The position numbers were made by a program, and so were the translations under genes. The notes under the pieces were generated by a model. It was not told the DNA's origin. It was given only the letters and a program-made list of their open reading frames with translations, and ran no database searches. From positions 892,347-956,346 of the forward strand of contig OZ253450.1 of the NCBI GenBank assembly GCA_965261335.1: 64,000 nt of DNA, given 5' to 3'. Below, in pieces: positions 9,591 through 43,790 of this stretch. The DNA is from Candidatus Spongiihabitans sp. (lineage in GTDB: Bacteria; Pseudomonadota; Gammaproteobacteria; Arenicellales; Poriferihabitantaceae). Each line of letters begins with the position of its first letter. Positions within the stretch are counted from its first letter, which is position 1.

Positions 9591-9600
9591 CTGAACGGAA

Positions 9601-16500: not shown

Positions 16501-19500
16501 AGCGTGATGATAACGGCTCCAGATGTTCCTTTGTTGCCGATGGTATCGGTTGAGCTTGCCGTGAATGTGTTAGCTCCTTCATCCAGCGTTACAAGTAACG
16601 TCCAAGTGCCATTCGTTGCGGTTGTGGTGCCAATAGTACCTCCGTTTTGGAATACCTCAACAGTGGAACCCGCATCAGCGGTTCCAGTCAGCGTGAATGA
16701 GCCTGTGTTGACCGATTGTGGTGTGCGGGTAGTGATGATTACTGTAGGTGCAGTCCTGTCAATCGTCAATGCGTAGTTGCTGGAAGCGGTGTTGCCATTG
16801 CCAGCAATATCATGAGCAACATCCGCACCAATGGATACGGTGACGCTTCCGTCAACGGTGGTTACTACATTAAAGGTGAATGTGCTGTTATCAGCACTTG
16901 CGGAAAAGCCGGATATAACAGTAGCAGTAGCACTACCCGAGATCGCCGTGCCTGTTACCGTAATATCGCCTTCATTAAAGCCACTAACTGCCTCAGTAAA
17001 GATGGCTGTGTAGCTCAGAGCTCGGTCGCTTATTGTGGCGCCATTACTTCCAGAAGTAGATGTGATGGTTACTCCGGGTCGGCCAGTGTCCAGCGTGATG
17101 ATAACGGCTTCGGTTGCCTCTGATGTGTTGCCAGTGCTATCGGTTGCGGTTGCCGTGAATGTGTTGGCTCCATCAGTCAGCCTTACCAGTAACGTCCAAT
17201 CACGAGTCGTTGTTGCGGTTGTGGTGCCAATAGTACCTCCGTTTTGGAATACCTCAACAGTGGAATCCGCATCAGCGGTTCCAGTCAGCGTGAATGATTC
17301 TGTGTTGACCGATTGTGGTGTGTTGGTAATGGATACACTCGGTGCGGTGCGGTCAATCGTCAATGTGAACCCGTTAGAAGCGGTGTTGCCATTGCCAGCA
17401 ATATCCTGAGCAACATCCGCATCAATAGACACTCTGACGTTTCCGTCAGTGGTCGCTACTACATTAAAGGTGTATGTTCTGCTATCAATTACAGAAAAGA
17501 TGGTTACAGCAGGACTACCCAAGTTTGCCGTGCCTGTTACCGTAATATCGTTTGTATCAAAGCCATTAACTGCCTCATCAAAGATGGCTGTGTAGCTCAG
17601 AGTGCGGGTGTTTATTGTGGCGCCATTACTTCCAGAAGCAGATGAGATGGTTACTCCGGGTCGGACAGTGTCCAGCGTGATGATAACGGCATCGGTTGCC
17701 TCTGATGTGTTGCCATTGTTATCGGTTGCCGTTGCCGTGAATGTGTTGGCTCCATCAGTCAGCGTTACCAGTAACGTCCAAGTACCACCCGTTGCGGTTG
17801 TGGTGCCAATAGAACCTCCGTTTTGGAATACCTCAACAGTGGAACCCGCCTCATCAGCGGTTCCAGTCAGCGTGAATGATTCTGTGTTGACCGTTTGTGG
17901 TGTGTTGGTAGTGATGCTTACTGTAGGTGCAGTGCTGTCAATCGTCAATGAGTGGTTGTTAGAAGCGGTGTTGCCATTGCCAGCACTATCTTGTGCAACC
18001 CCTGCGGCAATGGATACGGTGACGTTTCCGTCAGTGGTGGCTTCTACATTAAAGGTGTATGTTCTGCTATCAGTTGCGGAAAAGCCGGATATAACAGTAG
18101 CAGTAGCACTACCCGAGATCGCCGTGCCTGTTACCGTAATATCGCCTTCATCAAAGCCATTAACTGCCTCATCAAAGATGGCTGTGTAGCTCAGAGTGCG
18201 GGTGTTTGCTGTGCCACCATCACCTCCAGAAGTAGATGTGATGGTTACTCCAGGTCGGCCAGTGTCCAGCGTGATGATAACGGCATCGGTTGCGTCTGAT
18301 GTGTTGCCATTGTTATCGGTTGCCGTTGCCGTGAATGTGTTGGCTCCATCAGTCAGCGTTACCAGTAACGTCCAAGTACCACCCGTTGCGGTTTCGGTGC
18401 CAATAGGAATTCCGTTTTGGCGTACCTTAACAAGGGAACCCGCCTCAGCGGTTCCAGTCAGCGTGAATGAGCCTGCGTTGACCGATTGTGGTGTGTTGGT
18501 AATGGATACACTCGGTGCGGTGCGGTCAATCGTCAATGTGAACCCGTTAGAAGCGGTGTTGCCATTGCCAGCAATATCCTGAGCAACATCCGCATCAATA
18601 GACACGATGACGTTTCCGTCAGAGGAGGCTTCTACATTAAAGGTGTATGTTCTGCTATCAGCACTTGCGGAAAAGATGGTTACAGAAGGACTATCCAAGC
18701 TTGCCGTGCCTGTTACCGTAATATCGCCTTCATCAAAGCCATTAACTGCCTCATCAAAGATGGCTGTGTAGCTCAGAGCCCGGTCGCTTGTTATGGCACC
18801 ATTACCTCCAGAAGCAGATGTGATGGCTACTCCGGGTCCGTCAGTGTCCAACGTGATGATAACCTCACCAGATGTTCCTGTGTTGCCAGCGCCATTGGTT
18901 GAGCTTGCCGTGAATGTGTTGACTCCATCAGTCAGCGTTACAAGTAACGTCCAAGTACCATTTGTTGCGGTTGTGGTGCCAATAGTGCTTCCATCTTTGA
19001 GTACATCAACAGTGGAACCCGCCTCAGCGGTTCCAGTCAGCGTGAATGAGCCTGTGTTGACCGATTGTGGTGTGCGGGTAGTGATGATTACTGTAGGTGC
19101 AGTCCTGTCAATCGTCAATGAGTGGTTACTAGAAGCGGTGTTGCCATTGCCAGCAAGATCCTGAGCAAGATCCGCACCAATAGACACGATGACGTTTCCG
19201 TCAGAGGTGGCTTCTACATTAAAGGTGTATGTTCTGCTATCAATTACAGAAAAGCTGGTTACAGAAGGACTACCCAAGATTGCCGTGCCTGTTACCGTAA
19301 TATCGCCTTCATCAAAGCCATTAACTGCCTCAGTAAAGATGGCTGTGTAGCTCAGAGTGCGGGTGTTTGTTGTGGCACCATTACCTCCAGAAGCAGATGT
19401 GATGGTTACTCCGGGTCGGCCAGTGTCCAGCGTGATGATAACGGCTTCGGTTGCCTCTGATGTGTTGCCAGTGCTATCGGTTGCGGTTGCCGTGAATGTG

Positions 19501-22500
19501 TTGGCTCCATCAGTCAGCCTTACCAGTAACGTCCAATCACGAGTCGTTGTTGCGGTTGTGGTGCCAATAGTACCTCCGTTTTGGAATACCTCAACAGTGG
19601 AATCCGCATCAGCGGTTCCAGTCAGCGTGAATGATTCTGTGTTGACCGATTGTGGTGTGTTGGTAATGGATACACTCGGTGCGGTGCGGTCAATCGTCAA
19701 TGTGAACCCGTTAGAAGCGGTGTTGCCATTGCCAGCAATATCCTGAGCAACATCCGCATCAATAGACACTCTGACGTTTCCGTCAGTGGTCGCTACTACA
19801 TTAAAGGTGTATGTTCTGCTATCAATTACAGAAAAGATGGTTACAGCAGGACTACCCAAGTTTGCCGTGCCTGTTACCGTAATATCGTTTGTATCAAAGC
19901 CATTAACTGCCTCATCAAAGATGGCTGTGTAGCTCAGAGTGCGGGTGTTTATTGTGGCGCCATTACTTCCAGAAGCAGATGAGATGGTTACTCCGGGTCG
20001 GACAGTGTCCAGCGTGATGATAACGGCATCGGTTGCCTCTGATGTGTTGCCATTGTTATCGGTTGCCGTTGCCGTGAATGTGTTGGCTCCATCAGTCAGC
20101 GTTACCAGTAACGTCCAAGTACCACCCGTTGCGGTTGTGGTGCCAATAGAACCTCCGTTTTGGAATACCTCAACAGTGGAACCCGCCTCATCAGCGGTTC
20201 CAGTCAGCGTGAATGATTCTGTGTTGACCGTTTGTGGTGTGTTGGTAGTGATGCTTACTGTAGGTGCAGTGCTGTCAATCGTCAATGAGTGGTTGTTAGA
20301 AGCGGTGTTGCCATTGCCAGCACTATCTTGTGCAACCCCTGCGGCAATGGATACGGTGACGTTTCCGTCAGTGGTGGCTTCTACATTAAAGGTGTATGTT
20401 CTGCTATCAGTTGCGGAAAAGCCGGATATAACAGTAGCAGTAGCACTACCCGAGATCGCCGTGCCTGTTACCGTAATATCGCCTTCATTAAAGCCATTAA
20501 CTGCCTCATCAAAGATGGCTGTGTAGCTCAGAGTGCGGGTGTTTATTGTGGCGCCATCACCTCCAGAAGTAGATGTGATGGTTACTCCAGGTCGGCCAGT
20601 GTCCAGCGTGATGATAACGGCTTCGGTTGCCTTTGATGTGTTGCCATTGTTATCGGTTGCCGTTGCCGTGAATGTGTTGGCTCCATCAGTCAGCGTTACC
20701 AGTAACGTCCAAGTACCACCCGTTGCGGTTTCGGTGCCAATAGGAATTCCGTTTTGGCGTACCTTAACAAGGGAACCCGCCTCAGCGGTTCCAGTCAGCG
20801 TGAATGAGGCTGCGTTGACCGTTTGTGGTGTGCTGGTGGTAATGAGTACACCCGGTGCCATGCTGTCAATCGTCAATGCGTAGTTGCTGGAAGCGGTGTT
20901 GCCATTGCCAGCAATATCCTGAGCAACATCCGCATCAATAGACACGATGACGTTTCCGTCAGAGGTGGCTTCTACATTAAAGGTGTATGTTCTGCTATCA
21001 GTTGCGGAAAAGCCGGATATAACAGTAGCAGTAGCACTACCCGAGATCGCCGTGCCTGTTACCGTAATATCGCCTTCATTAAAGCCACTAACTGCCTCAC
21101 TAAAGATGGCTGTGTAGCTCAGAGTGCGGGTGTTTATTGTGGCGCCATTACTTCCAGAAGTAGATGTGATGGTTACTCCGGGTCGGACAGTGTCCAGCGT
21201 GATGATAACGGCATCGGTTGCGTCTGATGTGTTGCCATTGCTATCGGTTGCCGTTGCCGTGAATGTGTTGGCTCCATCAGTCAGCGTTACCAGTAACGTC
21301 CAAGTACCACCCGTTGCGGTTTCGGTGCCAATAGAATTTCCGTTTTGTGATACCTCAACAGTGGAACCCGCCTCAGCGTTTCCAGTCAGCGTGAATGAGC
21401 CTGCGTTAACCGTTTGTGGTGTGCTGGTAATGATTACACTCGGTGCAGTGCTGTCAATCGTCAATGAGTGGTTCCCAGAAGCGGTGTTGCCATTGCCAGC
21501 AATATCCTGAGCAACATCCGCATCAATAGACACGATGACGTTTCCGTCAGAGGTGGCTTCTACATTAAAGGTGTATGTTCTGCTATCAGTTGCGGAAAAG
21601 CCGGATATAACAGTAGCAGTAGCACTACCCGAGATCGCCGTGCCTGTTACCGTAATATCGCCTTCATCAAAGCCATTAACTGCCTCACTAAAGATGGCTG
21701 TGTAGCTCAGAGTGCGGGTGTTTATTGTGGCGCCATTACTTCCAGAAGTAGATGTGATGGTTACTCCGGGTCGGTCAGTGTCCAGCGTGATGATAACGGC
21801 ATCGGTTGCGTCTGATGTGTTGCCAGTGCTATCGGTTGCGGTTGCGGTGAATGTATTCGCTCCCTCCTCTAGCGTGACGGTGATTGTCCAAGTGCCATTC
21901 GTTGCGGTGACAGTGCCAAGAGAACTTCCATCTTTGAGTACATCAACAGTGGAACCCGCATCAGCGGTTCCAGTCAGCGTGAATGAGCCTGCGTTAACCG
22001 TTTGTGGTGTGCTGGTAATGATTACACTCGGTGCAGTGCTGTCAATCGTCAATGAGTGGTTCCCAGAAGCGGTGTTGCCATTGCCAGCAATATCCTGAGC
22101 AACATCCGCATCAATAGACACGATGACGTTTCCGTCAGAGGTGGCTTCTACATTAAAGGTGTATGTTCTGCTATCAGTTGCGGAAAAGCCGGATATAACA
22201 GTAGCAGTAGCACTACCCGAGATCGCCGTGCCTGTTACCGTAATATCGCCTTCATCAAAGCCACTAACTGCCTCACTAAAGATGGCTGTGTAGCTCAGAG
22301 TGCGGGTGTTTGCTGTGCCACCATCATCTCCAGAAGTAGATGAGATGGTTACGCTCGGTGCAACACTGTCCAGTGTGATGATAACCGGATCAGATGGGTT
22401 TGATGGTCCGTTTCCAACGACATCGGTTGCCGTTGCCGTAATTGTGTTGGCACCCGCTTCTAGCGTGACGCTGATTGTCCAAGAGCCATTCGTTGCGGTT

Positions 22501-25500
22501 GTAGTTGCACCAGCAATTTCAATACCGCTACGCAATAGTTGTACGATGGAATCCGACTCAGCAGAGCCTTCAAGCGTAACTGATACTGTGTTAGTGGCTT
22601 GTGTTACAGTGCTAATGGCTGGTTTGCCCGGTTTGGTACTGTCCAGTGTGATGATAGTGCTAAGGGATGGGAGGCTTGGTGGTCTGTTTCCAGCGGCATC
22701 GGTTGCGATTGCAGTGAATGTATTCGCTCCCTCCTCTAGCGTGACGGTGATTGTCCAAGTGCCATTCGTTGCGGTGACAGTGCCAAGAGAACTTCCATCT
22801 TTGCGTACCTCAACAGTGGAACCCGCATCAGCGTTTCCAGTCAGCGTGAATGATTCTGTGGTGACCGTTTGTGGTGTGGTGCTGATAATCGGGGTGGTTA
22901 GTGGTACCCCATTGACGGTGATGGTGATCATGGCGGCAGCCGAACCATGAGTATTGGTCGCAGTGATGGTGTAGGTGGTTAAAGTTGCAATCGCCGTTGG
23001 TGTACCTGAGATAGTGCCAGTGGCGGTGTCCAGTGTCAGTCCATCGGGGAGTGTTGAATCGATACTGTAGCTCTCAACCACACCGCCTGATGAGGCGATG
23101 GTTATATCCGCAATAGCAGTACCCACCGTGGCAACCAGCGTATTGGTGCTGATGCTGATGCTCGGGGGGACTTGTGGTGCCGCATTGACGGTGATGGCTA
23201 CCGTCGCTGTAGCCGAACCAGCACCATTGGTTGCAGTGATGACGTAGGTAGTTGAACCTGCCTCCGCCAATGGCGTACCCGAGATGGTGCCAGTGTCTGT
23301 GCCAAATGATAGTCCATTACCAATCTCTGGTTCGATGCCGTAGCTGGAAACCATACCGCCTGCTGTCTCATCAATGGTTATAGGCGTGATAGTAGTACCC
23401 GCTGTGGCAACCAGCGTATTGGTGCTGATACTGATAATCGGGGCGACATCATTGACGGTGACCGTGAAGGTCTGCGTAGCCGTTAGACCGCCACCATCGC
23501 GGGCAATCACGGTGATGATGGCTGTCCCTGATGTGACCGAGGTAACGGTAACAGAACCACCCGTAGCGGTAGCGGTGGCAATGTTCGGGTTATCGGACGT
23601 GGCACTGTAGAACAGGTCATCACCATCAATGTCATTGAAGTTATTGCGAACCGTAATCGTCTTACTTTCATCAACACTTAACGTTAAGGTGATGGAATCA
23701 ATGGTACCTTCTTTGACTGGAGCCCTGTTGTTCAGTGTGATGATAACCGGATCAGATGGGTTTGATGGTCCGTTTCCAACGGCATCGGTTGCGGTTGCCG
23801 TAATTGTGTTGGCACCCGCTTCTAGCGTGACGGTAATTGTCCAAGAGCCATTCGTTGCGGTTGTAGTTGCACCAGCAATTTCAATACCGCTACGCAATAG
23901 TTGTACGATGGAACCCATCTCAGCAACGCCTTCAAGCGTAACGGATACCGTGTTAGTGGCTTGTGTTGCAGTGCTAATGGCTGGTTTGATCGGATCTGTG
24001 TTGTCCAGTGTGATGACAGTGGCAAGGGATGGGAGGCTTGGTGGTCTGTTTTCAGTGGCATCGGTTGCGATTGCCGAGAATATGTTGGGTCCCGCTATCA
24101 GCGTGACGGTGATTGTCCAAGAGCCATTCGTTGTTGCGGTTGTGCTATCAAGAATATCCGTCTCCAGATCCCCTCTGTATAGATTCACAATAGAACCCGC
24201 ATCAGCGGTGCCACTAACAAGAAATGATGCCGCCTCTGCCGGTCCGACCGTTTTGCTTGTGGTGCTGATACTCGGGGTGGTTAGTGGTACCCCATTGACG
24301 GTGATGGTGATGGTTCCACTATCCGTACCACTACGATTAGTGGCTGTGATAGTGTAGGTGGTTAAAGTTGCAATCGCCGTTGGTGTACCTGATATAGTGC
24401 CAGTGGCGGTGTCAAATAACAAGTCATTCTCAATGGGCGGAACGATGCTATAGCTGTCAACCACGCGACCGTTTTTGGCGATGGTTATCGGTGTGATAGC
24501 GATACCCACTGTGGCAATTAGCGTATTGGTGCTGATACTGATACTTGGTACTAATAATTCAACGATGGTTACTCTAATTTGCTGTGTACTGACTGGCGAT
24601 ATTCCGTCCGATACGGTTACCAGAACGCTATATTCTTGGTCTGCATTCGGGTCAAATTCTCCCATAGCGTTTCTTGGGTTGTCATAATCTGGAATATAGC
24701 CGGCTTTGAAGCTTAATGTTCTTGTGTTTCCTGTTCCAGTTATCTCAAACAGTATGGCATCGTCATCTGAAAGCGTATAGGTCAAAGTATCACTTGTATC
24801 CCCATCCGTCGCGGTGATGGTGGTTACTTGCTGTGTGTTTTCGTATATTGTTAGTTCATACGGAGAAACACCATTGTTAGAGGTAATCTTGGGTTTATGA
24901 TTGGCGACAAGGGTCAACTCTTGCTGATTGTTTGTTCCAAATGAGCCAGTAGCCGCTATGGTAATGTGATATGAAGTTTTTCCAGCGGGTGGTACGTCGT
25001 TTATGGTCAGAACACCTGCTGAAGTTAGGGTAAACAGACCGACATCCGCTCCGCCGACGAGCGTATAGGTCGGGTTGTGACCACTTAAAACACTATTTTG
25101 AGCCGTAAACCGAGTTATTTCGGCTCCGGCACCCAGTGTTGGGTCCACGGTTGCATCCTCAGTGGTGATATACCAAGCACCTAGGTTTTGACTAAAAGCA
25201 GGTGTGTTGTTATGAAGCATATTATTCATATCCGTTACACCGCGGACATCCCAACGGCTAATGTCTTGGTTAAAGGCAGTGGCACTAGCAAACATCCACG
25301 TCATATTGGTCACATTGCTGACATCCCAATCACCAATATCTTGGTTAAATTCGTCAGTATATTCAAACAGCGTGCCCATATTTTCAACATTGCTGACATC
25401 CCAATTACCAATGTCTTGATTAAAGCTTTCAGCATATCTAAACATACCCCACATATCTATTACCCGAGACAAATCAGGTCGGTCGGTTGCTTGTCCTTCT

Positions 25501-28500
25501 AGGTTGGTTGCTCCTTCAAAAGCAAGTCTCATTGAAGACCATTGCTGGTTTCCCCATTGGTTAATGGCGATGATACTGTTGGAATTATCATTGCCATTCC
25601 CCGCATTAAAATCAATACGCGGGAAGTCGCCACTGATACGGACTTCATAATCGCCTGGGTGGGTGTAAGTATGCATGGCATTGCCGTTATAGGTCTCTGT
25701 ATCTGTTTCGCCATCCTCCCAATCAACGGTGTAACTATACGTTCCGCTAGAGTGTGTTGGAATGGTAATTTCCTGACCGGCTGTTACGCGCCAAGTGGTA
25801 ACGAAGTTGGTTGTGTCTATTGAGAATGGGTTATCACCGCCAACGGTAATGGTGAATGTTTTAGAATAATCAAGTGTACCATCACTCACTTTGATTCTGA
25901 TGTTATAACTTAGACTACCTGCGGCAGGCGTGTTCTTTATTCTTAAACTGGTGCCATCAATCGTGAACAATGCGTTGTCGGCATCACCATCTCCGGCAAC
26001 CAATGTATATGTGTATATTTCACCCGCATCTACACCATTGCTAGACAATAACCCAACCCGCCTGTTAGCTGGTGCATCACGCGCCACTTTTGTTGAAGAA
26101 AGTACAATATTCGTAGTCGGCTCGTCGACTGGCGTGATGGTTACTCTAATTTGCTGCATGTCCTCCGATATTCCGTCGAATACGAATACATTAACCCGAT
26201 ATTCTTGGTCTTCACTTTGATCGATATTACCTTGCGAGTCCCTTGGGTTTTCATAATCTGGAATATAGGCGGCTTTGAAGCGTAATTCTCCTGCGTTATT
26301 TATCTCAAAGACAGCCGCATCGTGATCTGAAATCCTATAGCTAAAATCACTAGCCCCTTCCGTATCCGTCGCCATGATGGTGGTGACCGCCTGTGTGTTT
26401 TCGGGGAGCGTTATTGAATATGGAGTAACACCACCATTGGGGGAGGTAATCCGCGGTGGATTATGGGAGGGAAGGATAAAATCTCGATGATGATTGTTAC
26501 CTCCAAGTAAGTTATATAGAGCACCGGAGGCAACCGATATGGTAATGCGATATGAAGTTTTATCAGCAGACGGTGCATTGTTTATGGTCAGAACTAAAGC
26601 TGAATTTAGGGCAAACAAACCGGCATCATCACCAGAAAGACTATAAACAGGGTTGTGACCGCTTAGAACGGCATTCTGAGCCGTGAACCGTGTTACTTCG
26701 GCTCCGGCACTCAGTGTTGGATCCACGCCTAAATTCCGGGTGCTAATATACCAAAACCCCAGGTTTTGGTTTTGACGAAAAACATCTGCACCACTAAACA
26801 TATCAGTCATATTCGTTACACCGCGGACATCCCAACGGCTTATGTCTTGGTTAAAGGCAGTGGCACGTTTAAACATATACGCCATATTGGTCACATTGCT
26901 GACATCCCAATCACCAATATCTTGGTTAAAGTCGTCAGTATATTCAAACAGCGTGCCCATATTGGTCACATTGCTGACATCCCAATTGCCAATGTCTTGA
27001 TTAAAGCTTTCAGCATGCCTAAACATACTCCACATATCTGTTACCCGAGACAAATCAGGTCGGTCGGTTGCTGCTCCTTCTAGGTTGGTTGCTCCAGCAA
27101 AAGCCAGTTCCATTGATGTCCATTGCTGACTTCCCCATTGGTTGATGGCGATGATGCTGTTGGAATTAGGATTACCAGAATCCGCATTAAAGTGAATGCG
27201 TGGGAAGTCGCCGCTGATACGGACTTCATAATTACCTGCATCGGCGTAAGTATGCATGGCATCGCCGGTATAGTCCATTGTATCTGTGCCACCATCACCC
27301 CAATTTACGGTGTAATCATAGCCACTACCTGCTGTTGGAATGGTGATGATCTGACCTGCCGTTACTCTCCAAGTAGTTACGAAGTCGTCTGTTGATAATG
27401 GAGCATCGCTAACGGTGATGACAAATGCCTTGGAATGATCATTTGTTCCATCGCTTGCTTGGATTCTGATGTTATAACTTAAACTACCTGCGGCGGGTGT
27501 GTTCTTTATTCTCAAACTGTTGCCATCAATTATGAACAATGCGTTGTCGGTATCACCATCTCCTTCAACCAATGTATACATGTGTACATCCGTATCTATA
27601 TCAGTAGCGGACAATAGCCCAACTCTCCTGTTAGCCGTTGCACTACTCGCCACCGTTGTTGAAGAAAGTGCAATGTCGGTTGGTGCGGTATTCCGATTAA
27701 CGGTGACCGTGAAGGTCTGCGTAGCCGTTAGACCGCCACCATCGCGGGCAATCACGGCGATGATGGCTGTCCCTGATGTGACCGAGGTAACGGTAACAGA
27801 ACCACCCGTAGCGGTAGCGGTGGCAATGTCCGGGTTATCGGACGTGGCACTGTAGAACAGGTCATCACCATCAATGTCATTGAAGTTATTGCGAACCGTA
27901 ATCGTCTTACTTTCATCAACACCTAACGTTAAGGTGACGGAATCAATGGTACCTTCTTTGACTGGAGCCCGGTTGTTCAGTGTGATGATAACCGGATCAG
28001 ATGGGTTTGATGGTCCGTTTCCAACGGCATCGGTTGCGATTGCCGTAATCGTGTTGGCACCCGCTTCTAGCGTGACGGTGATTGTCCAAGAGCCATTCGT
28101 TGCGGTTGTAGTTGCACCAGCAATTTCAATACCGCTACGCAATAGTTGTACGATGGAACCCATCTCAGCAGAGCCTACAAGCGTAACTGATACTGTGTTA
28201 GTAGCTTGTGTTGCAGTGCTAATGGCTGGTTTGATCGGAGCTGTGTTGTCCAGTGTGATGATAAGTTCTCTGGATGGGAGGCTTGGTCGTCTGTTTTCAG
28301 TGGCATCGGTTGCGATTGCCGAGAATATGTTGGGTCCCGCTATCAGCATGACGGTGATTGTCCAAGAGCCATTCGTTGCGGTTGTGCTACCAAGAATATC
28401 CGTCCCCGCCCCTCTGTACAGATTCACAATAGAACCCACATCAGCGGTGCCAGTCAGCGTGAATGATTCTGTGTTGACCGTTTTTGCTGTGGTGCTGATA

Positions 28501-29480
28501 CTCGGGGCGGTTAGTGGTGCCGCAACGGTAACCGTGAAGGTCTGGCTTGCAGGAAGGCTGTTACCCTGCCGAGCAAATACCGTGATTGTAGCAGTACCTG
28601 TTCCCAGCGCATCGAGCAACACCTCATTGTTTATCGTAATCGTAGCCGTGACCTTTTCAGGGGAACTAGAAGCCACAGTGTAGTCTAACGCAGAGGTATC
28701 CGCATCGAAAAAGTTGACATTGCCTGTCATTGTGCCTGCCGTTAGCACGACTGTCTTCGTATCCCCCAATTCTAGAGTCTGGTCAGCAATTGGTTCGTCT
28801 CCTGACATGGTCGGACTATCGAGGGCTGGACCGTTGATGATTACTGGGTCTCTGATTATAAAAGTAGAACCAATCGGAGCATTAGTCGCACCTTTTCGTC
28901 TAATAGCCATCCTAGTAGTGCTTGTATGAGTGCCAATCCATTTAAACTCTACGGTTGCCATCCGTATTGGCAATCCAGGTTTTGCGAAAGTAGGATGAGT
29001 AAATAAGCCACCACTAGAAAGGACCCACGCTATGGTATAGTATCGATCTGTAGTTGGATCGTCATCAAGATCATTGTACATTGGTCTGGTATCTGAGTCC
29101 GGTTGTAATTCACCCGATCCCTCCTCGTACGGATCCATTCTTGGCCAAAGCAATTCAGGAAATGCAAAAACCCAATCATCTGCGTACCCCTTATGTATAT
29201 TCGTCATCCCCACTGGTTCTAATACAGAACCATCATAATGCATTCGTATAGCCAGAGCGGCTATATCTCCCGTGCCCTCATAACGCTGGTATAAATCAAA
29301 GGTGAATGTACCGCCTTGGGTAATTCCAGGCGGACTTAGCGTCATAATCGCGGTAGTGCTACCAACCTCTACTATCTCTACTCGATGTTGATGTTCTAGA
29401 GGAACAGAAATCTCTGCCACAGCAATACTAACAAGCATTGATGCCACTAAAAAAACAATACACTGTAACAACCTGTTCAT
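10572..29480 (-). CDS. Giant autotransporter adhesin (6302 aa): signal peptide, cohesin-like N-terminal domain, cadherin-like/Ig domains, 2 DUF285 modules, He_PIG-like Ig domains, ~17 two-domain Ig repeat units, ZU5-like domain, C-terminal beta-barrel
   Basis: Sec signal MNRLLQCIVFLVASMLVSIAVA; repeats [21 protein letters not shown]...DIAGNGNTAS and [13 protein letters not shown]...GTWTLLVTLxxGANTF; barrel region LWGRGD...GFQVGID...LEAGLRYD ending ESKVQF with terminal Phe; RBS AGGAG upstream. Confidence 0.93.
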   Translation of the reverse strand: MNRLLQCIVFLVASMLVSIAVAEISVPLEHQHRVEIVEVGSTTAIMTLSPPGITQGGTFTFDLYQRYEGTGDIAALAIRMHYDGSVLEPVGMTNIHKGYADDWVFAFPELLWPRMDPYEEGSGELQPDSDTRPMYNDLDDDPTTDRYYTIAWVLSSGGLFTHPTFAKPGLPIRMATVEFKWIGTHTSTTRMAIRRKGATNAPIGSTFIIRDPVIINGPALDSPTMSGDEPIADQTLELGDTKTVVLTAGTMTGNVNFFDADTSALDYTVASSSPEKVTATITINNEVLLDALGTGTATITVFARQGNSLPASQTFTVTVAAPLTAPSISTTAKTVNTESFTLTGTADVGSIVNLYRGAGTDILGSTTATNGSWTITVMLIAGPNIFSAIATDATENRRPSLPSRELIITLDNTAPIKPAISTATQATNTVSVTLVGSAEMGSIVQLLRSGIEIAGATTTATNGSWTITVTLEAGANTITAIATDAVGNGPSNPSDPVIITLNNRAPVKEGTIDSVTLTLGVDESKTITVRNNFNDIDGDDLFYSATSDNPDIATATATGGSVTVTSVTSGTAIIAVIARDGGGLTATQTFTVTVNRNTAPTDIALSSTTVASSATANRRVGLLSATDIDTDVHMYTLVEGDGDTDNALFIIDGNSLRIKNTPAAGSLSYNIRIQASDGTNDHSKAFVITVSDAPLSTDDFVTTWRVTAGQIITIPTAGSGYDYTVNWGDGGTDTMDYTGDAMHTYADAGNYEVRISGDFPRIHFNADSGNPNSNSIIAINQWGSQQWTSMELAFAGATNLEGAATDRPDLSRVTDMWSMFRHAESFNQDIGNWDVSNVTNMGTLFEYTDDFNQDIGDWDVSNVTNMAYMFKRATAFNQDISRWDVRGVTNMTDMFSGADVFRQNQNLGFWYISTRNLGVDPTLSAGAEVTRFTAQNAVLSGHNPVYSLSGDDAGLFALNSALVLTINNAPSADKTSYRITISVASGALYNLLGGNNHHRDFILPSHNPPRITSPNGGVTPYSITLPENTQAVTTIMATDTEGASDFSYRISDHDAAVFEINNAGELRFKAAYIPDYENPRDSQGNIDQSEDQEYRVNVFVFDGISEDMQQIRVTITPVDEPTTNIVLSSTKVARDAPANRRVGLLSSNGVDAGEIYTYTLVAGDGDADNALFTIDGTSLRIKNTPAAGSLSYNIRIKVSDGTLDYSKTFTITVGGDNPFSIDTTNFVTTWRVTAGQEITIPTHSSGTYSYTVDWEDGETDTETYNGNAMHTYTHPGDYEVRISGDFPRIDFNAGNGNDNSNSIIAINQWGNQQWSSMRLAFEGATNLEGQATDRPDLSRVIDMWGMFRYAESFNQDIGNWDVSNVENMGTLFEYTDEFNQDIGDWDVSNVTNMTWMFASATAFNQDISRWDVRGVTDMNNMLHNNTPAFSQNLGAWYITTEDATVDPTLGAGAEITRFTAQNSVLSGHNPTYTLVGGADVGLFTLTSAGVLTINDVPPAGKTSYHITIAATGSFGTNNQQELTLVANHKPKITSNNGVSPYELTIYENTQQVTTITATDGDTSDTLTYTLSDDDAILFEITGTGNTRTLSFKAGYIPDYDNPRNAMGEFDPNADQEYSVLVTVSDGISPVSTQQIRVTIVELLVPSISISTNTLIATVGIAITPITIAKNGRVVDSYSIVPPIENDLLFDTATGTISGTPTAIATLTTYTITATNRSGTDSGTITITVNGVPLTTPSISTTSKTVGPAEAASFLVSGTADAGSIVNLYRGDLETDILDSTTATTNGSWTITVTLIAGPNIFSAIATDATENRPPSLPSLATVITLDNTDPIKPAISTATQATNTVSVTLEGVAEMGSIVQLLRSGIEIAGATTTATNGSWTITVTLEAGANTITATATDAVGNGPSNPSDPVIITLNNRAPVKEGTIDSITLTLSVDESKTITVRNNFNDIDGDDLFYSATSDNPNIATATATGGSVTVTSVTSGTAIITVIARDGGGLTATQTFTVTVNDVAPIISISTNTLVATAGTTITPITIDETAGGMVSSYGIEPEIGNGLSFGTDTGTISGTPLAEAGSTTYVITATNGAGSATATVAITVNAAPQVPPSISISTNTLVATVGTAIADITIASSGGVVESYSIDSTLPDGLTLDTATGTISGTPTAIATLTTYTITATNTHGSAAAMITITVNGVPLTTPIISTTPQTVTTESFTLTGNADAGSTVEVRKDGSSLGTVTATNGTWTITVTLEEGANTFTAIATDAAGNRPPSLPSLSTIITLDSTKPGKPAISTVTQATNTVSVTLEGSAESDSIVQLLRSGIEIAGATTTATNGSWTISVTLEAGANTITATATDVVGNGPSNPSDPVIITLDSVAPSVTISSTSGDDGGTANTRTLSYTAIFSEAVSGFDEGDITVTGTAISGSATATVISGFSATDSRTYTFNVEATSDGNVIVSIDADVAQDIAGNGNTASGNHSLTIDSTAPSVIITSTPQTVNAGSFTLTGTADAGSTVDVLKDGSSLGTVTATNGTWTITVTLEEGANTFTATATDSTGNTSDATDAVIITLDTDRPGVTITSTSGSNGATINTRTLSYTAIFSEAVNGFDEGDITVTGTAISGSATATVISGFSATDSRTYTFNVEATSDGNVIVSIDADVAQDIAGNGNTASGNHSLTIDSTAPSVIITSTPQTVNAGSFTLTGNAEAGSTVEVSQNGNSIGTETATGGTWTLLVTLTDGANTFTATATDSNGNTSDATDAVIITLDTVRPGVTITSTSGSNGATINTRTLSYTAIFSEAVSGFNEGDITVTGTAISGSATATVISGFSATDSRTYTFNVEATSDGNVIVSIDADVAQDIAGNGNTASSNYALTIDSMAPGVLITTSTPQTVNAASFTLTGTAEAGSLVKVRQNGIPIGTETATGGTWTLLVTLTDGANTFTATATDNNGNTSKATEAVIITLDTGRPGVTITSTSGGDGATINTRTLSYTAIFDEAVNGFNEGDITVTGTAISGSATATVISGFSATDSRTYTFNVEATTDGNVTVSIAAGVAQDSAGNGNTASNNHSLTIDSTAPTVSITTNTPQTVNTESFTLTGTADEAGSTVEVFQNGGSIGTTTATGGTWTLLVTLTDGANTFTATATDNNGNTSEATDAVIITLDTVRPGVTISSASGSNGATINTRTLSYTAIFDEAVNGFDTNDITVTGTANLGSPAVTIFSVIDSRTYTFNVVATTDGNVRVSIDADVAQDIAGNGNTASNGFTLTIDRTAPSVSITNTPQSVNTESFTLTGTADADSTVEVFQNGGTIGTTTATTTRDWTLLVRLTDGANTFTATATDSTGNTSEATEAVIITLDTGRPGVTITSASGGNGATTNTRTLSYTAIFTEAVNGFDEGDITVTGTAILGSPSVTSFSVIDSRTYTFNVEATSDGNVIVSIGADLAQDLAGNGNTASSNHSLTIDRTAPTVIITTRTPQSVNTGSFTLTGTAEAGSTVDVLKDGSTIGTTTATNGTWTLLVTLTDGVNTFTASSTNGAGNTGTSGEVIITLDTDGPGVAITSASGGNGAITSDRALSYTAIFDEAVNGFDEGDITVTGTASLDSPSVTIFSASADSRTYTFNVEASSDGNVIVSIDADVAQDIAGNGNTASNGFTLTIDRTAPSVSITNTPQSVNAGSFTLTGTAEAGSLVKVRQNGIPIGTETATGGTWTLLVTLTDGANTFTATATDNNGNTSDATDAVIITLDTGRPGVTITSTSGGDGGTANTRTLSYTAIFDEAVNGFDEGDITVTGTAISGSATATVISGFSATDSRTYTFNVEATTDGNVTVSIAAGVAQDSAGNGNTASNNHSLTIDSTAPTVSITTNTPQTVNTESFTLTGTADEAGSTVEVFQNGGSIGTTTATGGTWTLLVTLTDGANTFTATATDNNGNTSEATDAVIITLDTVRPGVTISSASGSNGATINTRTLSYTAIFDEAVNGFDTNDITVTGTANLGSPAVTIFSVIDSRTYTFNVVATTDGNVRVSIDADVAQDIAGNGNTASNGFTLTIDRTAPSVSITNTPQSVNTESFTLTGTADADSTVEVFQNGGTIGTTTATTTRDWTLLVRLTDGANTFTATATDSTGNTSEATEAVIITLDTGRPGVTITSTSGSNGATISDRALSYTAIFTEAVSGFNEGDITVTGTAISGSATATVISGFSASADNSTFTFNVVTTVDGSVTVSIGADVAHDIAGNGNTASSNYALTIDRTAPTVIITTRTPQSVNTGSFTLTGTADAGSTVEVFQNGGTIGTTTATNGTWTLLVTLDEGANTFTASSTDTIGNKGTSGAVIITLDTDRPGVTITSTSGSNGATISDRALSYTAIFTEAVNGFDEGDITVTGTAISGSATATVISGFSATDSRTYTFNVEATSDGNVIVSIDADVAQDIAGNGNTASSNHSLTIDRTAPTVIITTRTPQSVNTGSFTLTGTADAGSTVEVFQNGGTIGTTTATNGTWTLLVTLDEGANTFTASSTDTIGNKGTSGAVIITLDTDRPGVTITSTSGSNGATISDRAMSYTATFEEAVSGFDTNDITVTGTASLDSPSVTIFSASADSRTYTFNVEASSDGNVIVSIGADVAQDIAGNGNTASNGFTLTIDGTAPSVSITSTPQTVNAGSFTLTGTADAGSTVDVLKDGSTIGTTTATNGTWTLLVTLDEGANTFTASSTDTIGNKGTSGAVIITLDTDRPGVTITSTSGSNGATISDRAMSYTATFEEAVSGFDTNDITVTGTASLDSPSVTIFSASADSRTYTFNVEASSDGNVIVSIGADVAQDIAGNGNTASNGFTLTIDGTAPSVSITSTPQTVNAGSFTLTGTADAGSTVDVLKDGSTIGTTTATNGTWTLLVTLDEGANTFTASSTDTIGNKGTSGAVIITLDTDRPGVTITSTSGSNGATISDRAMSYTATFEEAVSGFDTNDITVTGTANLGSPSVTIFSVIDSRTYTFNVVATSDGNVRVSIDADVAQDIAGNGNTASNGLTLTINRTAPTVSITTSTPQTVNTESFTLTGTADAGSIVEVLKDGSTIGTTTATNGTWTLLVTLDEGANTFTASSTDTIGNKGTSGAVIITLDTDRPGVTITSTSGSNGDTISDRAMSYTATFEEAVSGFDTNDITVTGTANLGSPSVTIFSVIDSRTYTFNVVATSDGNVRVSIDADVAQDIAGNGNTASNGLTLTINRIAPTVSITTSTPQTVNTESFTLTGTADAGSLVTVRQNGIPIGTTTATNGTWTLLVTLDEGANTFTASSTDTIGNKGTSGAVIITLDTDRPGVTITSTSGSNGDTISDRAMSYTATFEEAVSGFDTNDITVTGTANLGSPSVTIFSVIDSRTYTFNVVATSDGNVRVSIDADVAQDIAGNGNTASNGLTLTINRTAPTVSITTSTPQTVNTESFTLTGTADAGSLVTVRQNGIPIGTETATNGTWTLLVTLDEGANTFTASSTDTIGNKGTSGAVIITLDTDRPGVTITSTSGSNGATISDRAMSYTATFEEAVSGFDTNDITVTGTANLGSPSVTIFSVIDSRTYTFNVVATSDGNVRVSIDADVAQDIAGNGNTASNGLTLTINRTAPTVSITTSTPQTVNTESFTLTGTADAGSIVEVLKDGSTIGTTTATNGTWTLLVTLDEGANTFTASSTDVAGNTSPLSDAVIITMLIGQYQKQITTNDNQTRTVTVEFGVPQAVTVTIRAFTTTTSASADDVITKASNTLNIETAKDDFEFISHLLSVVKVDLLENAIVDIVITDAFGYPVSDACSVDSPCKVSLSYTGGDLVELGDISAEELVVFHYTNDKWTELKSFVDPDSPNTIVGETTSFSPFVLGRVDRYSTQFHRQVIARFTQALVANVARTVEGRVGAAFSDARQLASYQLDGQTVQLNGSDNLQDSMMNKLPHYAKALKDGGMDWKAMLSRSSFVLPLNTAGNPDSEQSGMTLWGRGDYTKLSGKSDGLDWNGSLVGFQVGIDSRIRDDLLVGGLVSLGNGKADYTDNRTDGAYKLKNMTGVHPYMAWTSGDMSLWGSVGYGQGRAEVSTGNVTSKVSMLSLSGGAKGKLSQTGLSLKGDISLARTDVENTIKVDNKQRLRLVLESERQRTLASGGTITPVLEAGLRYDSGDDESGLGAVLGAGIRHNLDGWVVKGKVHAVVGQNNYQEWGIHGTIEKAPNVNQQGLSFSVNPSYGATDIRMQQVYGRDQTSVSNNGTSNDYAMHLNARMDYGLSVSGIRGMLIPYSKATLGGQSKDYELGINWKRHSAFNINLSVERETRDTSKHRILLESKVQF
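12430..22380 (-). repeat. Intragenic tandem array of ~17 units of ~579-594 bp (paired bacterial Ig-like domains)
   Basis: Shadow ORFs recur at exact 579-bp steps (12961, 13540, 14119, 14698, 15277, 15856), then at ~585-594 bp; higher-order 2337-bp duplication (17313 vs 19650, 17602 vs 19939). Confidence 0.95.
28830..29360 (-). other. Cohesin-like domain at the mature N-terminus of the autotransporter
   Basis: GGTFTFDLY...DIAALAIRMHYDGSVLEP...DLDDDPTTDRYYTIAW...LPIRMATVEFK follows the cohesin pattern (hydrophobic strand, YD-x-x-x-L, terminal LxxxxF strand); recognised by eye. Confidence 0.65.
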
Positions 29481-29485
29481 AAATT

Positions 29486-29491
29486 CTCCTC
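29486..29491 (-). promoter_or_regulatory. Ribosome-binding site in the 25-bp gap linking the two giant genes as an operon
   Basis: Minus strand reads ...TAGTGAGGAGAATTT-ATG; no room for a terminator or promoter between stop (29506) and start (29480). Confidence 0.8.
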
Positions 29492-29505
29492 ACTATTCAA
29501 TTAGT

Positions 29506-32500
29506 TTAGTTATCACTGGACGGGGGTATTAAGGTTTCTATATGAGCACCTATCTCTTCTATAGTGTGATTAAGATTACCCAGACCACTTATCACCCCTG
29601 AGTTATCACCCAGCGATGCATATCTCAAAATTATAAGTCCATCGATATGAGTAAATACACCATCACCACTCACATCTAAAAGCCCACCACCTCGTTCTAT
29701 GATCTCTCCAATCTCTCCTATGGTGCGATCAAGATTACCCAGACCGCTTATCACCCCTGAGTTATCACCCAGCGATGCATATCTCAAAATTATAAGTCCA
29801 TCGATATGAGTAAATACACCATCACCACTTACATCCAAATTAAAGGTAGGAGCGGCAACATTGACGGTGATGCTAACCGTAGCGGTACCCGAACCAGCAC
29901 TATTTTCGGCAATGATGGTGTAGGTGATTGAGGTTGCACTCATCGATGGCACACCCGAAATAGTGCCAGTGGCTGTGCTAAATAACAGTCCATTAGCAAT
30001 AGGCGGGTCGATGTCATAGCGGGTAACCGTATCGCCACCTGTGGCGATGATTATCGGATCGATAGCGATACCCGCTGTTGCAATCACCGTATTGGTGCTG
30101 AGCATAATACTCGGAGGAGCGAGAATGTCAACCGTCAATGTGAGCCCGCTAAAAGCGGTGTTGCCATTGCCAGCAACATCATGAGCAACCTCTGCGGCAA
30201 TGGATACGGTAACGCTTCCGTCAGAGGTGGCTATTGCATTAAAGGTGTATGTTTTGCTATCAGTTGCAGAAAAGATGGTTACAGAAGGACTACCCAAGTT
30301 TGCCGTGCCTATTACCGTAATATCGCCTTCATCAAAGCCATTAACTGCCTCACTAAAGATGGCTGTGTAGCTCAGAGTGCGGGTGTTTGCTGTGCCACCA
30401 TTACCTCCAGAAGTAGATGTGATGGTTACGGTCGGTGCAACACTGTCCAGCGTGATGGTTACGCTAGCCGATGGGGTTGAGACATTGCCAGCGGCATCGG
30501 TTGCGGTTGCCGTGATTGTGTTGGCTCCCTCCTCTAGCGTGACGGTGATTGTCCAAGTGCCATTCGTTGCGGTGGCAGTGCCAAGAGACTCCGTTCCTTT
30601 GAGTAGCTCCACCGTAGAACCCGTCTCAGCGTCACCAGTCAGCGTGAATGAGCCTGCGTTGACCGATTGTGGTGTGTTGGTAGTGATGCTTACACTCGGT
30701 GCGGTGCTGTCAATCGTCAATGCGTAGGCGTTAGAAGCGTCGTTGCCATTGCCAGCAATATCCTGAGCAACCCCTGCGGCAATGGATACGGTAACGCTTC
30801 CGTCAGTGGTGGCTTCTACATTAAAGGTGTATGTTCTGCTATCAGTTGCAGAAAAGATGGTTACAGAAGGACTACCCAAGTTTGCCGTGCCTGTTACTGT
30901 AATATCGCCTGCATCAAAGCCATTAACTACCTCATCAAAGATGGCTGTGTAGCTCAGGGCTCGGTCGTTTATTGTGGCACTATTACTTCCAGAAGCAGAT
31001 GTGATGGTTACTCCGGGTCGGTCAGTGTCCAGCGTGATGATAACGGCTTCTGATTGAATTGATATATGCCCTGCCCTGTCTTTTGCGGTTACCGTAATCG
31101 TGTTGTTGCCTTCTTCCAGCGTAACGGGAATTGTCCAAGCACCATTTTTATCAGCCTTTGCACTCGCAGAGATTGTACCGCCACGCAATAGTTGTACGGT
31201 TGCCCTCGCATCAGCGGTTCCAGTCAGCGTAAATACTGCCGTGTTAATCGTCTGTGCTTGAGTGGTAATGATGGGTCTGGTTGGTTTATCTATATCTCGC
31301 TTGATGATAACCCTACGCCGGTTATCCATCCCAAACTCATTCATGACAGTGGATGCGATCTCAATCGTATAAGAGTCTGCAGTAAGTACTGTTTTGAGTA
31401 CCAGCTTATTCCCATCCAGCCTAAATGTTTCAGTCCCCGAAAGAAGCGTATAAACGGGGTTTTTACCGTTAAGAAATCTGTTTTGGGCGGTGATGGTTGC
31501 TATCTCATCATCTTCTACAGCCAGACTACTCACGGGTAATGTGAGACTCGCTGTTAATGTCTCATCTGCCGGGAATGCCGCATCGGTAATATACCAACGC
31601 CCTAGGTTTTGCTCAAAGGCGTTGGCAGAATGAAACATATAATCCATATTGATAACATTACGAACATCCCAAAGGTTCATATCTTGGTTAAAGACTGTGG
31701 CACTAAAAAACACACCCTCCATATTGGTAACACTGCTGACATCCCAGTGCCCTATGTCTTGATTAAAGACCAAGGCAGTAGAAAACATATAATACATGTT
31801 GTTAACATTGCTGACATCCCAATCGCCGATATCTTGATTAAAGGTGCGGGCTCCATAAAACATTTCACCCATGTTGTTAACATTGCTGACATCCCAATCG
31901 CCAATGTCTTGGTTAAAGGCAGTGGCTTCAGAAAACATTTCACCCATGTTGTTAACATTCCTGACATCCCAATCGCCAATGTCTTGGTTAAATATTCTAG
32001 CACTCCTAAACATAAACGACATATCCGTTACTCGAGACAAATCAGGTCGGTCGGTTGCTTGTCCTGCTAGGTCGATCGCTCCTTTAAAAGCAGATTCCAT
32101 CGAAGTCCATCGCCGATTTCCCCATTGATTGATAGCGATTAGACTATTCGCATTTATCACTTGCGGAGTTGGATTTCCGAATGAGCGGGAGGTGGTATTA
32201 AAATAAATGCGTGGAAAAGTGCCGCTGATACTGACTTTATACTTGCCCTCTGAGGTATATTGGTGGGTGGATCCGCTGGACTGGTTAGTGCTGGTGTTTC
32301 CATCGCCCCAATTTACGGTGTAACTATACGTTCCATCAGGGTGTGTTGGAATAGTAATTTCCTGACCTGCCTCTACCGCCCAAGTGGTAACGAAGTCGTC
32401 TGCACTTATTGATAACGGGTTATCAGTAACAGTAATCATAAATACTCTAGAAAAATCATGTAGCCTATCCTCTACACTGATTCTGATGCTGTAGGTTCCT

Positions 32501-41500: not shown

Positions 41501-41793
41501 GGGAAGTCGCCGCTGATACGGACGGTATAAGTCCCTGTGGCATCATACACATGCTTGGCATCACCGTCATATACGTTGTTGTCTTCTGCTTCACTACCGC
41601 CCCAATTAACGGTGTAACTATACGTTCCACCAGCCTCTGTTGGAATGGTAATTTCCTGACCTGCCCCTGCCGCCCAAGTGGTAACAAAGTCGTCTGTATC
41701 GTCAGCCTGTATCGGATTGGTGATAACCAACAGCACGAAAAAGGTGACGTGCCCAATGAGAAAAACCAATCGTACCAATTCAATCAACTGCAT
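29506..41793 (-). CDS. Secreted 4095-aa surface protein: 9 DUF285 (BspA-like) modules, cadherin-like and Ig domains, C-terminal duplicated dockerin-like domain, no barrel
   Basis: Signal peptide ending NPIQA; nine FVT[T/L/N]W-initiated modules each followed by [20 protein letters not shown] repeats; cadherin-like motifs ([23 protein letters not shown]); C-terminus 2x [20 protein letters not shown]. Confidence 0.93.
29560..29845 (-). repeat. Dockerin-like duplicated calcium-binding loop-helix (159-bp period)
   Basis: [36 protein letters not shown] occurs twice, 53 aa apart (DNA copies start at 29572 and 29731); pattern D-x-S-x-D-G-x5-D followed by an amphipathic helix. Confidence 0.8.
41066..41298 (-). 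repeat. Three exact 75-bp tandem repeats (25-aa DUF285 unit)
   Basis: [25 protein letters not shown] x3; DNA copies start at 41066, 41141, 41216. Confidence 0.95.
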
Positions 41794-41849
41794 TTGGATG
41801 CCTTATTAAGAGTCGAGTACAAATTAGACCGCACACATTAGGATTTGAA

Positions 41850-42317: not shown

Positions 42318-42460
42318 AACGACCACCGTCTAAAGACGGTGGGTTGAAAGGACGGACTGAAAGTCCCGTTGATAGGCTAAAGCCGATTCGTCACGACTCA
42401 ACATCAAAGTGATCATTCGGGTTACGCTCGAAATGGTACTCCAAATATTCCTTAATCATT
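42318..42460 (-). mobile_element. tnpA: IS200/IS605-family remnant (tnpA C-terminus and end hairpin)
   Basis: Minus strand encodes MIKEYLEYHFERNPNDHFDVES*, like the Y1 transposase C-terminal helix with the catalytic Tyr; adjacent hairpin CCACCGTCT-AA-AGACGGTGG. Confidence 0.7.
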
Positions 42461-43095
42461 TATTCCTGACTTTCGACGATAGCATAGGGTAAACTCACCC
42501 CATAGTTCGTTCGAGTTAAATCTACACCCAATAGCCCAAGACAATCGGTTCAGATTGTGCAATCCGTTCGTGTCGGCGATAAGGTCAAACAAAAGATTGT
42601 GCGGCATGGACATGTGATGACGATGAGCTGGCGCACGTTGAAGGTTTTGGCCGAATGTCGTCAGGGCAAAATTGAATACAGGCATCAGCCCAGCATGAGA
42701 CGGTGCCAAACAGATGATTGAAGCGAAAGCAGCAAAAGACCAATCGTCCAAAGCCACCTTGAATGTTGATCTGATGCAGATGGTGGAGGAACAACGTGTG
42801 GTGCTGGGCATCCATAGAGGTATATGACGAGGTCTATCGCCAGTTGTCTTCGATACCCTGTTGCTGAAGAAGCGGTATCATGCCTCCCATGAAAGGCCAC
42901 TGGTCGGTTACGAAGTATTCCCGGGTGCCGCTTTCGAGGGACATAGCCTAATCAGAGTTTTGAGACTATGCAAGCACGCTATGATGTCCGGAAAATGATC
43001 TTTGTCGCTGATCGGGGCATGCTTAATGAAGACAATCTGCATGCCATGAGATGAGGCGAGTGCTTATTACATTGTCGGGGCGAAACTAAAACAAT

Positions 43096-43664: not shown

Positions 43665-43790
43665 TAGTCAGCCCTTAAAAACATCTAAACAGTTTGATTT
43701 ATATCAATAAAACAAACAAAACCATTAACCAAATCAACCGCTTTATGTTAGAATAACCGTTGTTTTCTGGTCGTTTTAGTTAAAACATTA
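43665..43790 (+). mobile_element. Isolated left end of the IS5-family element
   Basis: TAGTCAGCCCTTAAAAACATCTAAA... is the near-exact reverse complement of 8413-8537 and stops just before the transposase start. Confidence 0.85.

Follow-up and report, generated by a model that had tools for sequence, protein, structure and literature searches.

Two adjacent giant genes of a Candidatus Spongiihabitans sp. genome probably encode a DUF285 protein and an autotransporter on whose tip that protein hangs by a joint of the cohesin-dockerin type. The genes lie on the minus strand of a 64,000-nucleotide (nt) stretch of contig OZ253450.1 (assembly GCA_965261335.1, positions 892,347 to 956,346). The whole stretch is called the window, all coordinates refer to it unless stated otherwise, and its genome carries the label G000. 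P0001 (29506-41793) encodes a 4095-amino acid (aa) DUF285-repeat protein, the proposed cargo or head. P0002 (10572-29480) encodes a 6302-aa autotransporter, the proposed anchor or scaffoldin. Both were defined by translation and Pfam searches. An earlier interpretation made from the letters alone (the sequence-only reading) had put the two-part total at about 10,000 aa, and the lengths sum to 10,397 aa. In the proposed assembly, the P0002 barrel would sit in the outer membrane and its passenger, about 5,700 aa of Ig-like repeats, would project outward, which would place the cohesin-like N-terminus at the distal tip. P0001, with its 13 DUF285 units, would plug a C-terminal calcium-loop tandem dockerin into this tip. 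The result would be a two-chain surface fibre with a head-stalk-barrel layout in two polypeptides and a cargo that is likely adhesin-like, not enzymatic. We infer the cohesin fold, the binding of the two modules, the extracellular site of this binding and the adhesive function.

The C-terminus of P0001 can be firmly assigned by sequence comparison to a long-linker variant of dockerins, because PF00404 (Dockerin_1) scores above its cut-off and a profile of relatives matches dockerins of known structure. The tandem dockerin (29521-29838, minus strand) consists of two 53-aa units, aa 3986-4038 and 4039-4091 of P0001. Each unit comprises an EF-hand-like loop (D-V-S-G-D-G-x5-D), a helix with '...LRY', a linker and a second helix. 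The two duplicated 12-residue loops show EF-hand spacing, with acidic or polar residues at positions 1, 3, 5 and 12, are each followed by GLIILRY and are predicted from sequence to bind calcium. We take the 'LRY' after the loop to correspond to the 'KRY' that clostridial dockerins conserve. At the DNA level the module is a tandem repeat of 145 nt with 159-nt spacing and 90% identity. PF00404 reaches 26.2 bits on the last 149 aa (cut-off 22.9) and only 17.9 bits on the entire 4095-aa protein. The genome-wide PF00404 search placed the match at 29620-29835, with 22.8 bits alone and 32 bits with the neighbour in frame. A profile (A3) was built from eight dockerin sequences, namely the P0001 tail and seven relatives from two other genomes. 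Its match covers 29524-29850, and all eight sequences keep the motif residues L, V, D and R ('LxV...D.....R') unchanged in each unit. Against the PDB, A3 retrieved 37 sequences at E<=10. The best 25 matches are all dockerins or dockerin-bearing cellulosomal or amylosomal proteins, except for one serine protease solved twice (8x3a, 8x39). E-values were 2.9e-7 for 4fl4_A, 1.5e-6 for 2ccl_B and 2.1e-6 for 1ohz_B, 1daq was among the matches, and each 53-aa unit aligns to one loop-helix segment of the PDB dockerins. The single dockerin sequence retrieved nothing meaningful from the PDB, and a word-limited homologue search with the tail, which carries little weight, found none. The earlier proposal that this tail is a dockerin thus holds on both the Pfam score and the structural matches (E 3e-7 to 2e-6).

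The remainder of P0001 fits a secreted cargo protein. The predicted signal peptide (41704-41793, aa 1-30, minus strand) is a hydrophobic leader ending 'NPIQA|DD', read by eye. Pfam recognizes DUF285 (PF03382; E = 0, 1093.8 bits) in 13 stretches, together with PKD, cadherin-like and Big_13 domains. No C-terminal barrel and no other anchor was seen in the sequence or the Pfam scan. P0001 is the sole adhesin-repeat open reading frame (ORF) of at least 1500 aa in the genome that has no C-terminal barrel. Translation and Pfam therefore bear out the earlier description of a secreted DUF285 protein with neither anchor nor barrel and with a duplicated C-terminal loop-helix, the leader being judged by eye. 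The Pfam scan of P0001 also shows no enzyme domain, in agreement with the earlier statement that no carbohydrate-active enzyme is recognizable.

P0002 is, by its predicted domains, a classical (type Va) autotransporter. A signal peptide predicted by eye (29415-29480, aa 1-22, 'MNRLLQCIVFLVASMLVSIAVA|E', minus strand) is followed by a domain of about 200 aa, by Ig-like, two DUF285 and cadherin-like domains, by an Ig-like array and by the barrel. Within the first 1600 aa, Pfam identifies two DUF285 domains, Big_6, a cadherin domain and Big_9, and the remainder reads from the translation as a long array of Ig-like repeats. The C-terminal outer-membrane beta-barrel (10575-11606, minus strand) ends '...LLESKVQF', hence in an aromatic residue, and PF03797 (Autotransporter) scores 28.3 bits against a cut-off of 26, so the barrel predicted by the sequence-only reading is there. 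The genome-wide PF03797 search located the barrel at 11223-11606 with 30.6 bits.

The domain directly behind the signal peptide (28806-29414, minus strand; P0002 aa 23-225, with a profile-matched core at about aa 36-197) is plausibly a divergent relative of cohesins with a predicted cohesin fold. This link is transitive and rests on the observation that the family homologous to the P0002 domain includes members matching PF00963, the cohesin family. The strings quoted in the sequence-only reading (IAALAIRMHYDGSVLEP, TDRYYTIAW and MATVEFK) are all present in P0002. Hallmarks of the domain are 'HYDGSVLEP', 'DLDDDPTTDRYYTIAW' and 'MATVEFKW', and the family alignments A2 and A4 share 'hYDsskLe', 'nlDdDptTDkY..W' and 'lP.rL....F'. 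The A4 match on P0002 spans 28845-29387. A HMMER scan of 1.84 billion representatives returned only four proteins at E<=1e-3 (P0003-P0006). P0003 is the closest homologue, with 49% identity and the same leader as P0002, and P0005 and P0006 carry repeated weaker copies of the domain. P0004, a Big_3_5 repeat protein, is likely a spurious multi-repeat match judging by its alignment ranges and was left out of the alignments. A profile search added P0007-P0010 to the family. Used singly against genome contigs, neither the cohesin-like domain nor the barrel domain retrieved a related locus.

A profile made only of six environmental sequences matched the P0002 N-terminus as the sole hit among 21,059 six-frame ORFs (E 2.3e-8; next E 0.91). 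This search was run with the HMMER option --max, as the default filters miss the 6305-aa ORF. An 11-row profile, with rows from genomes G006 and G020 added and the window and P0003 rows removed, recovered the domain at E 9e-16. Of the 13 family members, three match PF00963 (best E 5.7e-5), and a single one exceeds the cut-off. None of the three comes from G000, G006 or G020. The member above the cut-off, P0008, scores 29.1 bits against 24.1 at residues 97-212, inside the family-profile match at 81-228. No Pfam family other than PF00963 matches more than one of the 13 members. In hhalign comparisons, the family matched nine canonical cohesin domains with P = 9e-4 (probability 22.5%), and the environmental six gave a colinear 102-column match with P = 2.6e-3. 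Three unrelated repeat alignments used as controls gave P 0.39-0.9 with the same profile, and 0.09-0.9 when all three query profiles are counted. The earlier claim of a cohesin-like domain behind the signal peptide is hence plausible through transitive homology, and not through any direct PF00963 match. The family also contains a conserved acidic insert ('DLDDDPTTDRYY'; P0002 aa 120-150, about 29030-29120), in which D117, D119 and T122 are invariant in eight sequences. Such an insert is not known to us from canonical cohesins, and it may constitute a metal site of its own.

The partnership of P0001 and P0002 is predicted, and it is supported by comparative genomics because the adjacency of the modules is conserved and their co-occurrence is strict. 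Each module occurs once in the 2.77-Mb genome, as phmmer searches against the six-frame ORFs found only the module itself, and a regular expression for the dockerin loop matched only P0001. The sole dockerin and the sole cohesin-like domain of the genome therefore lie 25 nt apart. The congener G006 encodes a 1835-aa autotransporter (PF03797, 46.6 bits) starting with the same N-terminal cohesin-like domain. It is followed after 9-20 nt, depending on the start codon, by a 3389-aa leucine-rich repeat (LRR) protein ending in the same tandem dockerin. Compared to G000, the gene order is reversed and both the head (LRR versus DUF285) and the stalk differ. By sequence, the conserved unit is thus the module pair, since G006 differs in order, head and stalk yet keeps both modules.

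In a set of 41 genomes, made up of G000 and 40 relatives, the cohesin-like profile A2 matches G000, G006 and G020. PF00404 exceeds its cut-off in the same three, and G003 has one sub-threshold match at 18.3 bits. Among 69 genomes of the family, A4 (cohesin-like) and A3 (dockerin) both match the same four genomes, G000, G005, G006 and G020, and the other 65 have neither. The G006 adjacency and these four of 69 genomes agree with the earlier expectation that homologs of both modules co-occur elsewhere. In G005 both modules are remnants, 880 kb apart, which suggests joint decay of the pair as judged from sequence. At locus L041 (8700-9877, minus strand), a 321-aa cohesin-like frame runs into the final strands of a barrel. 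At locus L042 (8061-8282, minus strand), what is left of the dockerin is 74 aa long and lies next to an IS30-like transposase. In a class-wide sample, the cohesin-like domain was found in six of 401 genomes. Four of these six also have a dockerin, in the same ORF in one genome and 9 kb away in another.

The 2.3-Mb genome G020 contains a much larger set, with 75 dockerin matches (A3) and six cohesin-like matches (A4). In the fetched loci, all 25 dockerin ORFs have the module at most 11 residues from the C-terminus, and most of the 25 have Sec-type leaders. Ten of the 25 were scanned. The domains detected in them are all of the He_PIG, cadherin-like, fn3 or Calx-beta type, and none of the ten holds an enzyme. 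In four small proteins a cohesin-like domain and a dockerin occur together. Dockerin-ended genes also form runs of up to eight consecutive genes, for example in L022 (C1:2140001-2156000) and L044 (963501-983500). G020 has only two autotransporter matches, and one lies within a cohesin/dockerin cluster, where a 329-aa cohesin-plus-dockerin gene immediately precedes it and two dockerin-ended genes follow. The N-terminus of this autotransporter was reached from the P0002 domain by iterative search (E 1.2e-6). Judged by its sequences, G020 looks like a scaffold-and-cargo system in which adhesin-like proteins would be anchored to the membrane through an autotransporter. Lipoprotein-like leaders in G020 had hinted at Neisseriaceae, but G000 shows no over-represented 12-mer resembling a DNA uptake sequence, and ammonia monooxygenase is absent as well.

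The junction between the two genes in the window is real DNA and no assembly artefact. The stop codon TAA of P0001 occupies 29506-29508 and the ATG of P0002 29480-29478. This leaves a 25-nt spacer (29481-29505, minus strand, from P0001 to P0002) with a GAGGAG Shine-Dalgarno motif 5 nt ahead of the P0002 ATG, and confirms the 25-bp gap given previously. P0001 and P0002 are likely co-transcribed given this arrangement. Unbroken contigs assembled from the runs of two other studies (X1, X3) span 28600-29617 and show 0 differences. In a variant strain (run X4), the junction has substitutions only and no indels. The junction is not an artefact because the contigs of the two other studies are identical and the variant strain is indel-free. 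Contigs end inside the tandem repeat of the dockerin, which is normal for short-read assemblies. The variant strain carries 15 differences and no indel across 29252-29688, and 10 of the 15 are non-synonymous. The non-synonymous changes are concentrated at aa 68-77 of P0002 and, in P0001, at the second dockerin unit (aa 4036-4045). Their number is too small to call co-variation, and some lie close to contig ends.

Several results weigh against a cohesin-dockerin joint between P0001 and P0002. At the level of the cohesin-like domain, P0002 aa 1-260 had no Pfam match at E<=1 and the domain alone none at E<=10. PF00963 had no match at E<=0.1 in the 41 genomes, including G000, G006 and G020. Domain and family profiles matched no cohesin structure in the PDB and retrieved chance hits only (glutaredoxin E 0.1, chitinase E 0.39), and hhalign probabilities were only 10-22%. 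The dockerin is atypical too, with segments 53 aa apart and an extra linker and helix in each unit ('...LGLRGxxLVxG......VxxNI...'). At about 106 aa and with 53-aa spacing, the module is not compact in the manner of the usual dockerin of about 60-70 aa with a short linker. The Pfam alignment on P0001 uses 72 residues for 53 model positions, and we estimate, relative to the canonical spacing, a linker about 17-20 residues longer than in Pfam's 57-position model. Regarding co-occurrence, G000, G006 and G020 supplied sequences for A3 and A4, so these three genomes match by construction. The weight therefore lies on G005, on the 65 genomes with neither module and on the Pfam search, which is independent. 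G000, G005 and G006 belong to one genus and only two genera of the family are involved, so independent lineages are few. Dockerins are common class-wide, with matches at E<=0.01 in 62 of 400 genomes (one genome was not scored). Two of the six class genomes with the cohesin-like domain, G185 and G367 of one genus, have no PF00404 match. These two, from another family, carry the domain on a 452-aa protein (G367, L058 1396-2751; G185, L059 1414-2772) that ends in a hydrophobic stretch and a basic tail resembling a sorting signal. By sequence, the domain would here be anchored in a different way.

The secretion of P0001 adds a further difficulty. Searches for the type II secretion system (T2SS) covered three marker families only, GspL, GspG and GspD. 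No GspL was found in G000, no GspG in G000, G006 or G020, and no GspD at the cut-off. Secretin matches in G000 and G006 stayed at about 72 bits, far short of the cut-off of 351, and G020 had no secretin match at all. The Slam-like family PF04575 occurs in G000, G006, G003 and G004 and not in G020, and does not track the system. No ShlB-type transporter (PF03865) was matched, and the control was silent, making this search uninformative. With no T2SS detected among these markers, P0001, as a Sec-exported, barrel-less protein of 4095 aa, has no known way to the surface.

These difficulties give some room to other explanations. Both modules could be genuine without being partners, which we consider unlikely and yet serious enough to weigh. 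The P0002 tip might bind an external ligand, and the dockerin-like tandem might be a calcium-dependent folding or stabilizing tail or bind something else, with both carried on one transferable locus. Such an explanation would account for dockerins being far commoner across the class (62 of 400) than the cohesin-like subfamily (6 of 401), and for the hydrophobic-anchored 452-aa protein of G185 and G367, which bears the cohesin-like domain with no PF00404 match beside it. A single transferable locus would sit poorly, however, with the G005 remnants lying 880 kb apart and the G020 modules being spread over tens of loci, when the same four of 69 genomes hold both. G006 also keeps both modules though heads, stalks and gene order differ. 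Furthermore, the geometry is as in cellulosomes, since the protein lacking a barrel carries its dockerin at the C-terminus and the anchored protein carries its cohesin-like domain at the N-terminus. Hardly credible, by comparison, is that the two genes are an artefact or a decaying gene, in which one autotransporter was broken by mutation or misassembly and the motif likeness arose by chance. Insertion sequence (IS) fragments do flank the genes, and the locus is highly repetitive. The junction is nevertheless identical in the contigs of two other studies and indel-free in the variant strain, P0002 has its own ribosome-binding site and signal peptide, G006 shares the two-gene design, and the dockerin scores exceed curated thresholds.

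A different possibility concerns the place where the joint forms. The P0002 tip might capture the P0001 dockerin in the periplasm before or during export, so that P0001 would leave the cell either with the help of P0002, as a non-covalent 'split passenger', or through a route across the outer membrane that is linked to P0002 and has no description so far. The three genomes with an intact system yielded no T2SS components from the three marker families, and G020 combines 75 dockerin matches, mostly Sec-type leaders among the 25 examined ORFs and no secretin, all of which periplasmic capture would accommodate. The C-terminus of P0001 would also meet the N-terminus of the P0002 passenger, mimicking a continuous chain, and P0001 has the leader of a single-chain autotransporter. 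We nevertheless judge this route very unlikely. A folded cohesin-dockerin complex exceeds the size that autotransporter pores are known to pass, and we know of no precedent for a cargo passing in trans with an autotransporter. The T2SS searches were also restricted to just three marker families. Capture outside the cell, after release of P0001 by vesicles or lysis, would be the simpler reading. A wider formulation, in which type V secretion anchors, and perhaps also helps to export, a modular surface system resembling the cellulosome in a T2SS-lacking diderm family, seems quite unlikely to us as well. Proteins with long-linker dockerins would then be captured by the cohesin-like N-terminus, possibly in the periplasm, and surface as a non-covalent extension of the passenger. 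The surface joint between P0001 and P0002 remains our preferred reading, and the secretion question it raises reaches beyond this pair. Dozens of Sec-exported dockerin-tagged proteins occur in genomes with no detected type II system, one of which has no secretin.

The proposed joint resembles cellulosomal type I pairs (e.g., 1ohz/2ccl) in several respects. The cargo there likewise carries a C-terminal dockerin of two duplicated EF-hand-like loop-helix segments, and the matching beta-sandwich module sits on a cell-anchored scaffold. The counterpart here is the cohesin-like domain, whose fold is predicted. Cellulosomes combine many cargoes with few scaffolds, and G020 likewise has 75 dockerin versus six cohesin-like matches. 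Unlike in cellulosomes, attachment in this diderm host would be through an autotransporter barrel and not through SLH domains or sortase. The dockerin units are 53 aa apart with an extra helix, and the cohesin-like domain falls below PF00963 and contains the D-rich insert 'DLDDDPTTDRYY'. P0001 and all ten scanned G020 cargoes hold only adhesin-type repeats and no carbohydrate-active enzyme. Hence the defining arrangement of a cellulosome, dockerin-bearing carbohydrate-active enzymes on a scaffoldin, was not found.

Two previously described systems come close to the arrangement. In Chlorobium chlorochromatii, Cag_2038, an 18-BIg protein with a C-terminal dockerin, adjoins Cag_2037, which has an N-terminal cohesin (bioRxiv 10.64898/2026.03.19.712371). 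According to that source, Cag_2037 is an RTX substrate of type I secretion with an alginate-lyase-like domain, the dockerin protein is proposed as the cell-side partner, and their binding was modelled with AlphaFold 3. The Chlorobium pair shares with ours the adjacent genes, the giant Ig-repeat proteins, the non-cellulosomal setting and the Gram-negative host. It differs in phylum and in the carriers of the two modules, which in our pair are an autotransporter for the cohesin-like domain and a barrel-less protein for the dockerin. In engineered systems on E. coli or P. putida, cohesins displayed by autotransporters capture dockerin-tagged proteins non-covalently (for example PMC9705933). Those constructs are synthetic and use heterologous pairs and, apparently, purified tagged proteins, and the arrangement here would be a natural counterpart.

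Engineered autodisplay of cohesin on P. putida has reportedly been described in a preprint. A survey is said to have recorded cohesin-like and dockerin-like modules outside cellulose degraders across bacteria and archaea, mostly without tested function, and to our knowledge it drew no link to type V secretion. Full-text literature searches, with subscription journals outside their coverage, found no natural cohesin-bearing autotransporter. The novelty asserted in the sequence-only reading is thereby narrowed. A natural autotransporter scaffold is absent from the literature searched, but an adjacent pair in Chlorobium and engineered autotransporter-displayed cohesins have been described. If the modules bind, the pair would be a natural version of a design built by synthetic biologists, in which a cohesin on an autotransporter docks tagged proteins. 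The reach of cohesin-dockerin assembly would in that case widen from enzyme complexes to modular giant adhesins of Gram-negative bacteria. The pair would further show that a passenger whose length or variability exceeds what a single gene can carry may be divided between exchangeable head and stalk genes.

Other giant autotransporters of the same genome provide a context for such a split. PF03797 has 19 matches in the genome, and several barrels are nearly identical. The leader of P0001 also heads a 17,175-aa single-chain autotransporter. The single-chain giants resemble the pair in leader, in DUF285, cadherin-like and Ig-like repeats and in a near-identical barrel, and differ in being one polypeptide with neither a dockerin nor a cohesin-like module. 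From these likenesses, the pair looks like a head-stalk-barrel protein made as two chains. Together, the 17 largest adhesin-type ORFs, which include P0001 and measure 1,590-17,175 aa, encode about 96,900 aa, or about 10% of the 2.77-Mb genome. Within the window, giant adhesin-type ORFs occupy 2-7345, 10572-29480 and 46656-64000. The gaps between giant genes at 7332-10228 and 42452-46172 are filled with transposase-like ORFs and fragments, ISXO2-like or IS30-like by look only. The segment at about 7200-7378 repeats that at about 41650-41841, which covers the P0001 leader and upstream region, and the next giant gene therefore seems to share the 5' end of P0001.

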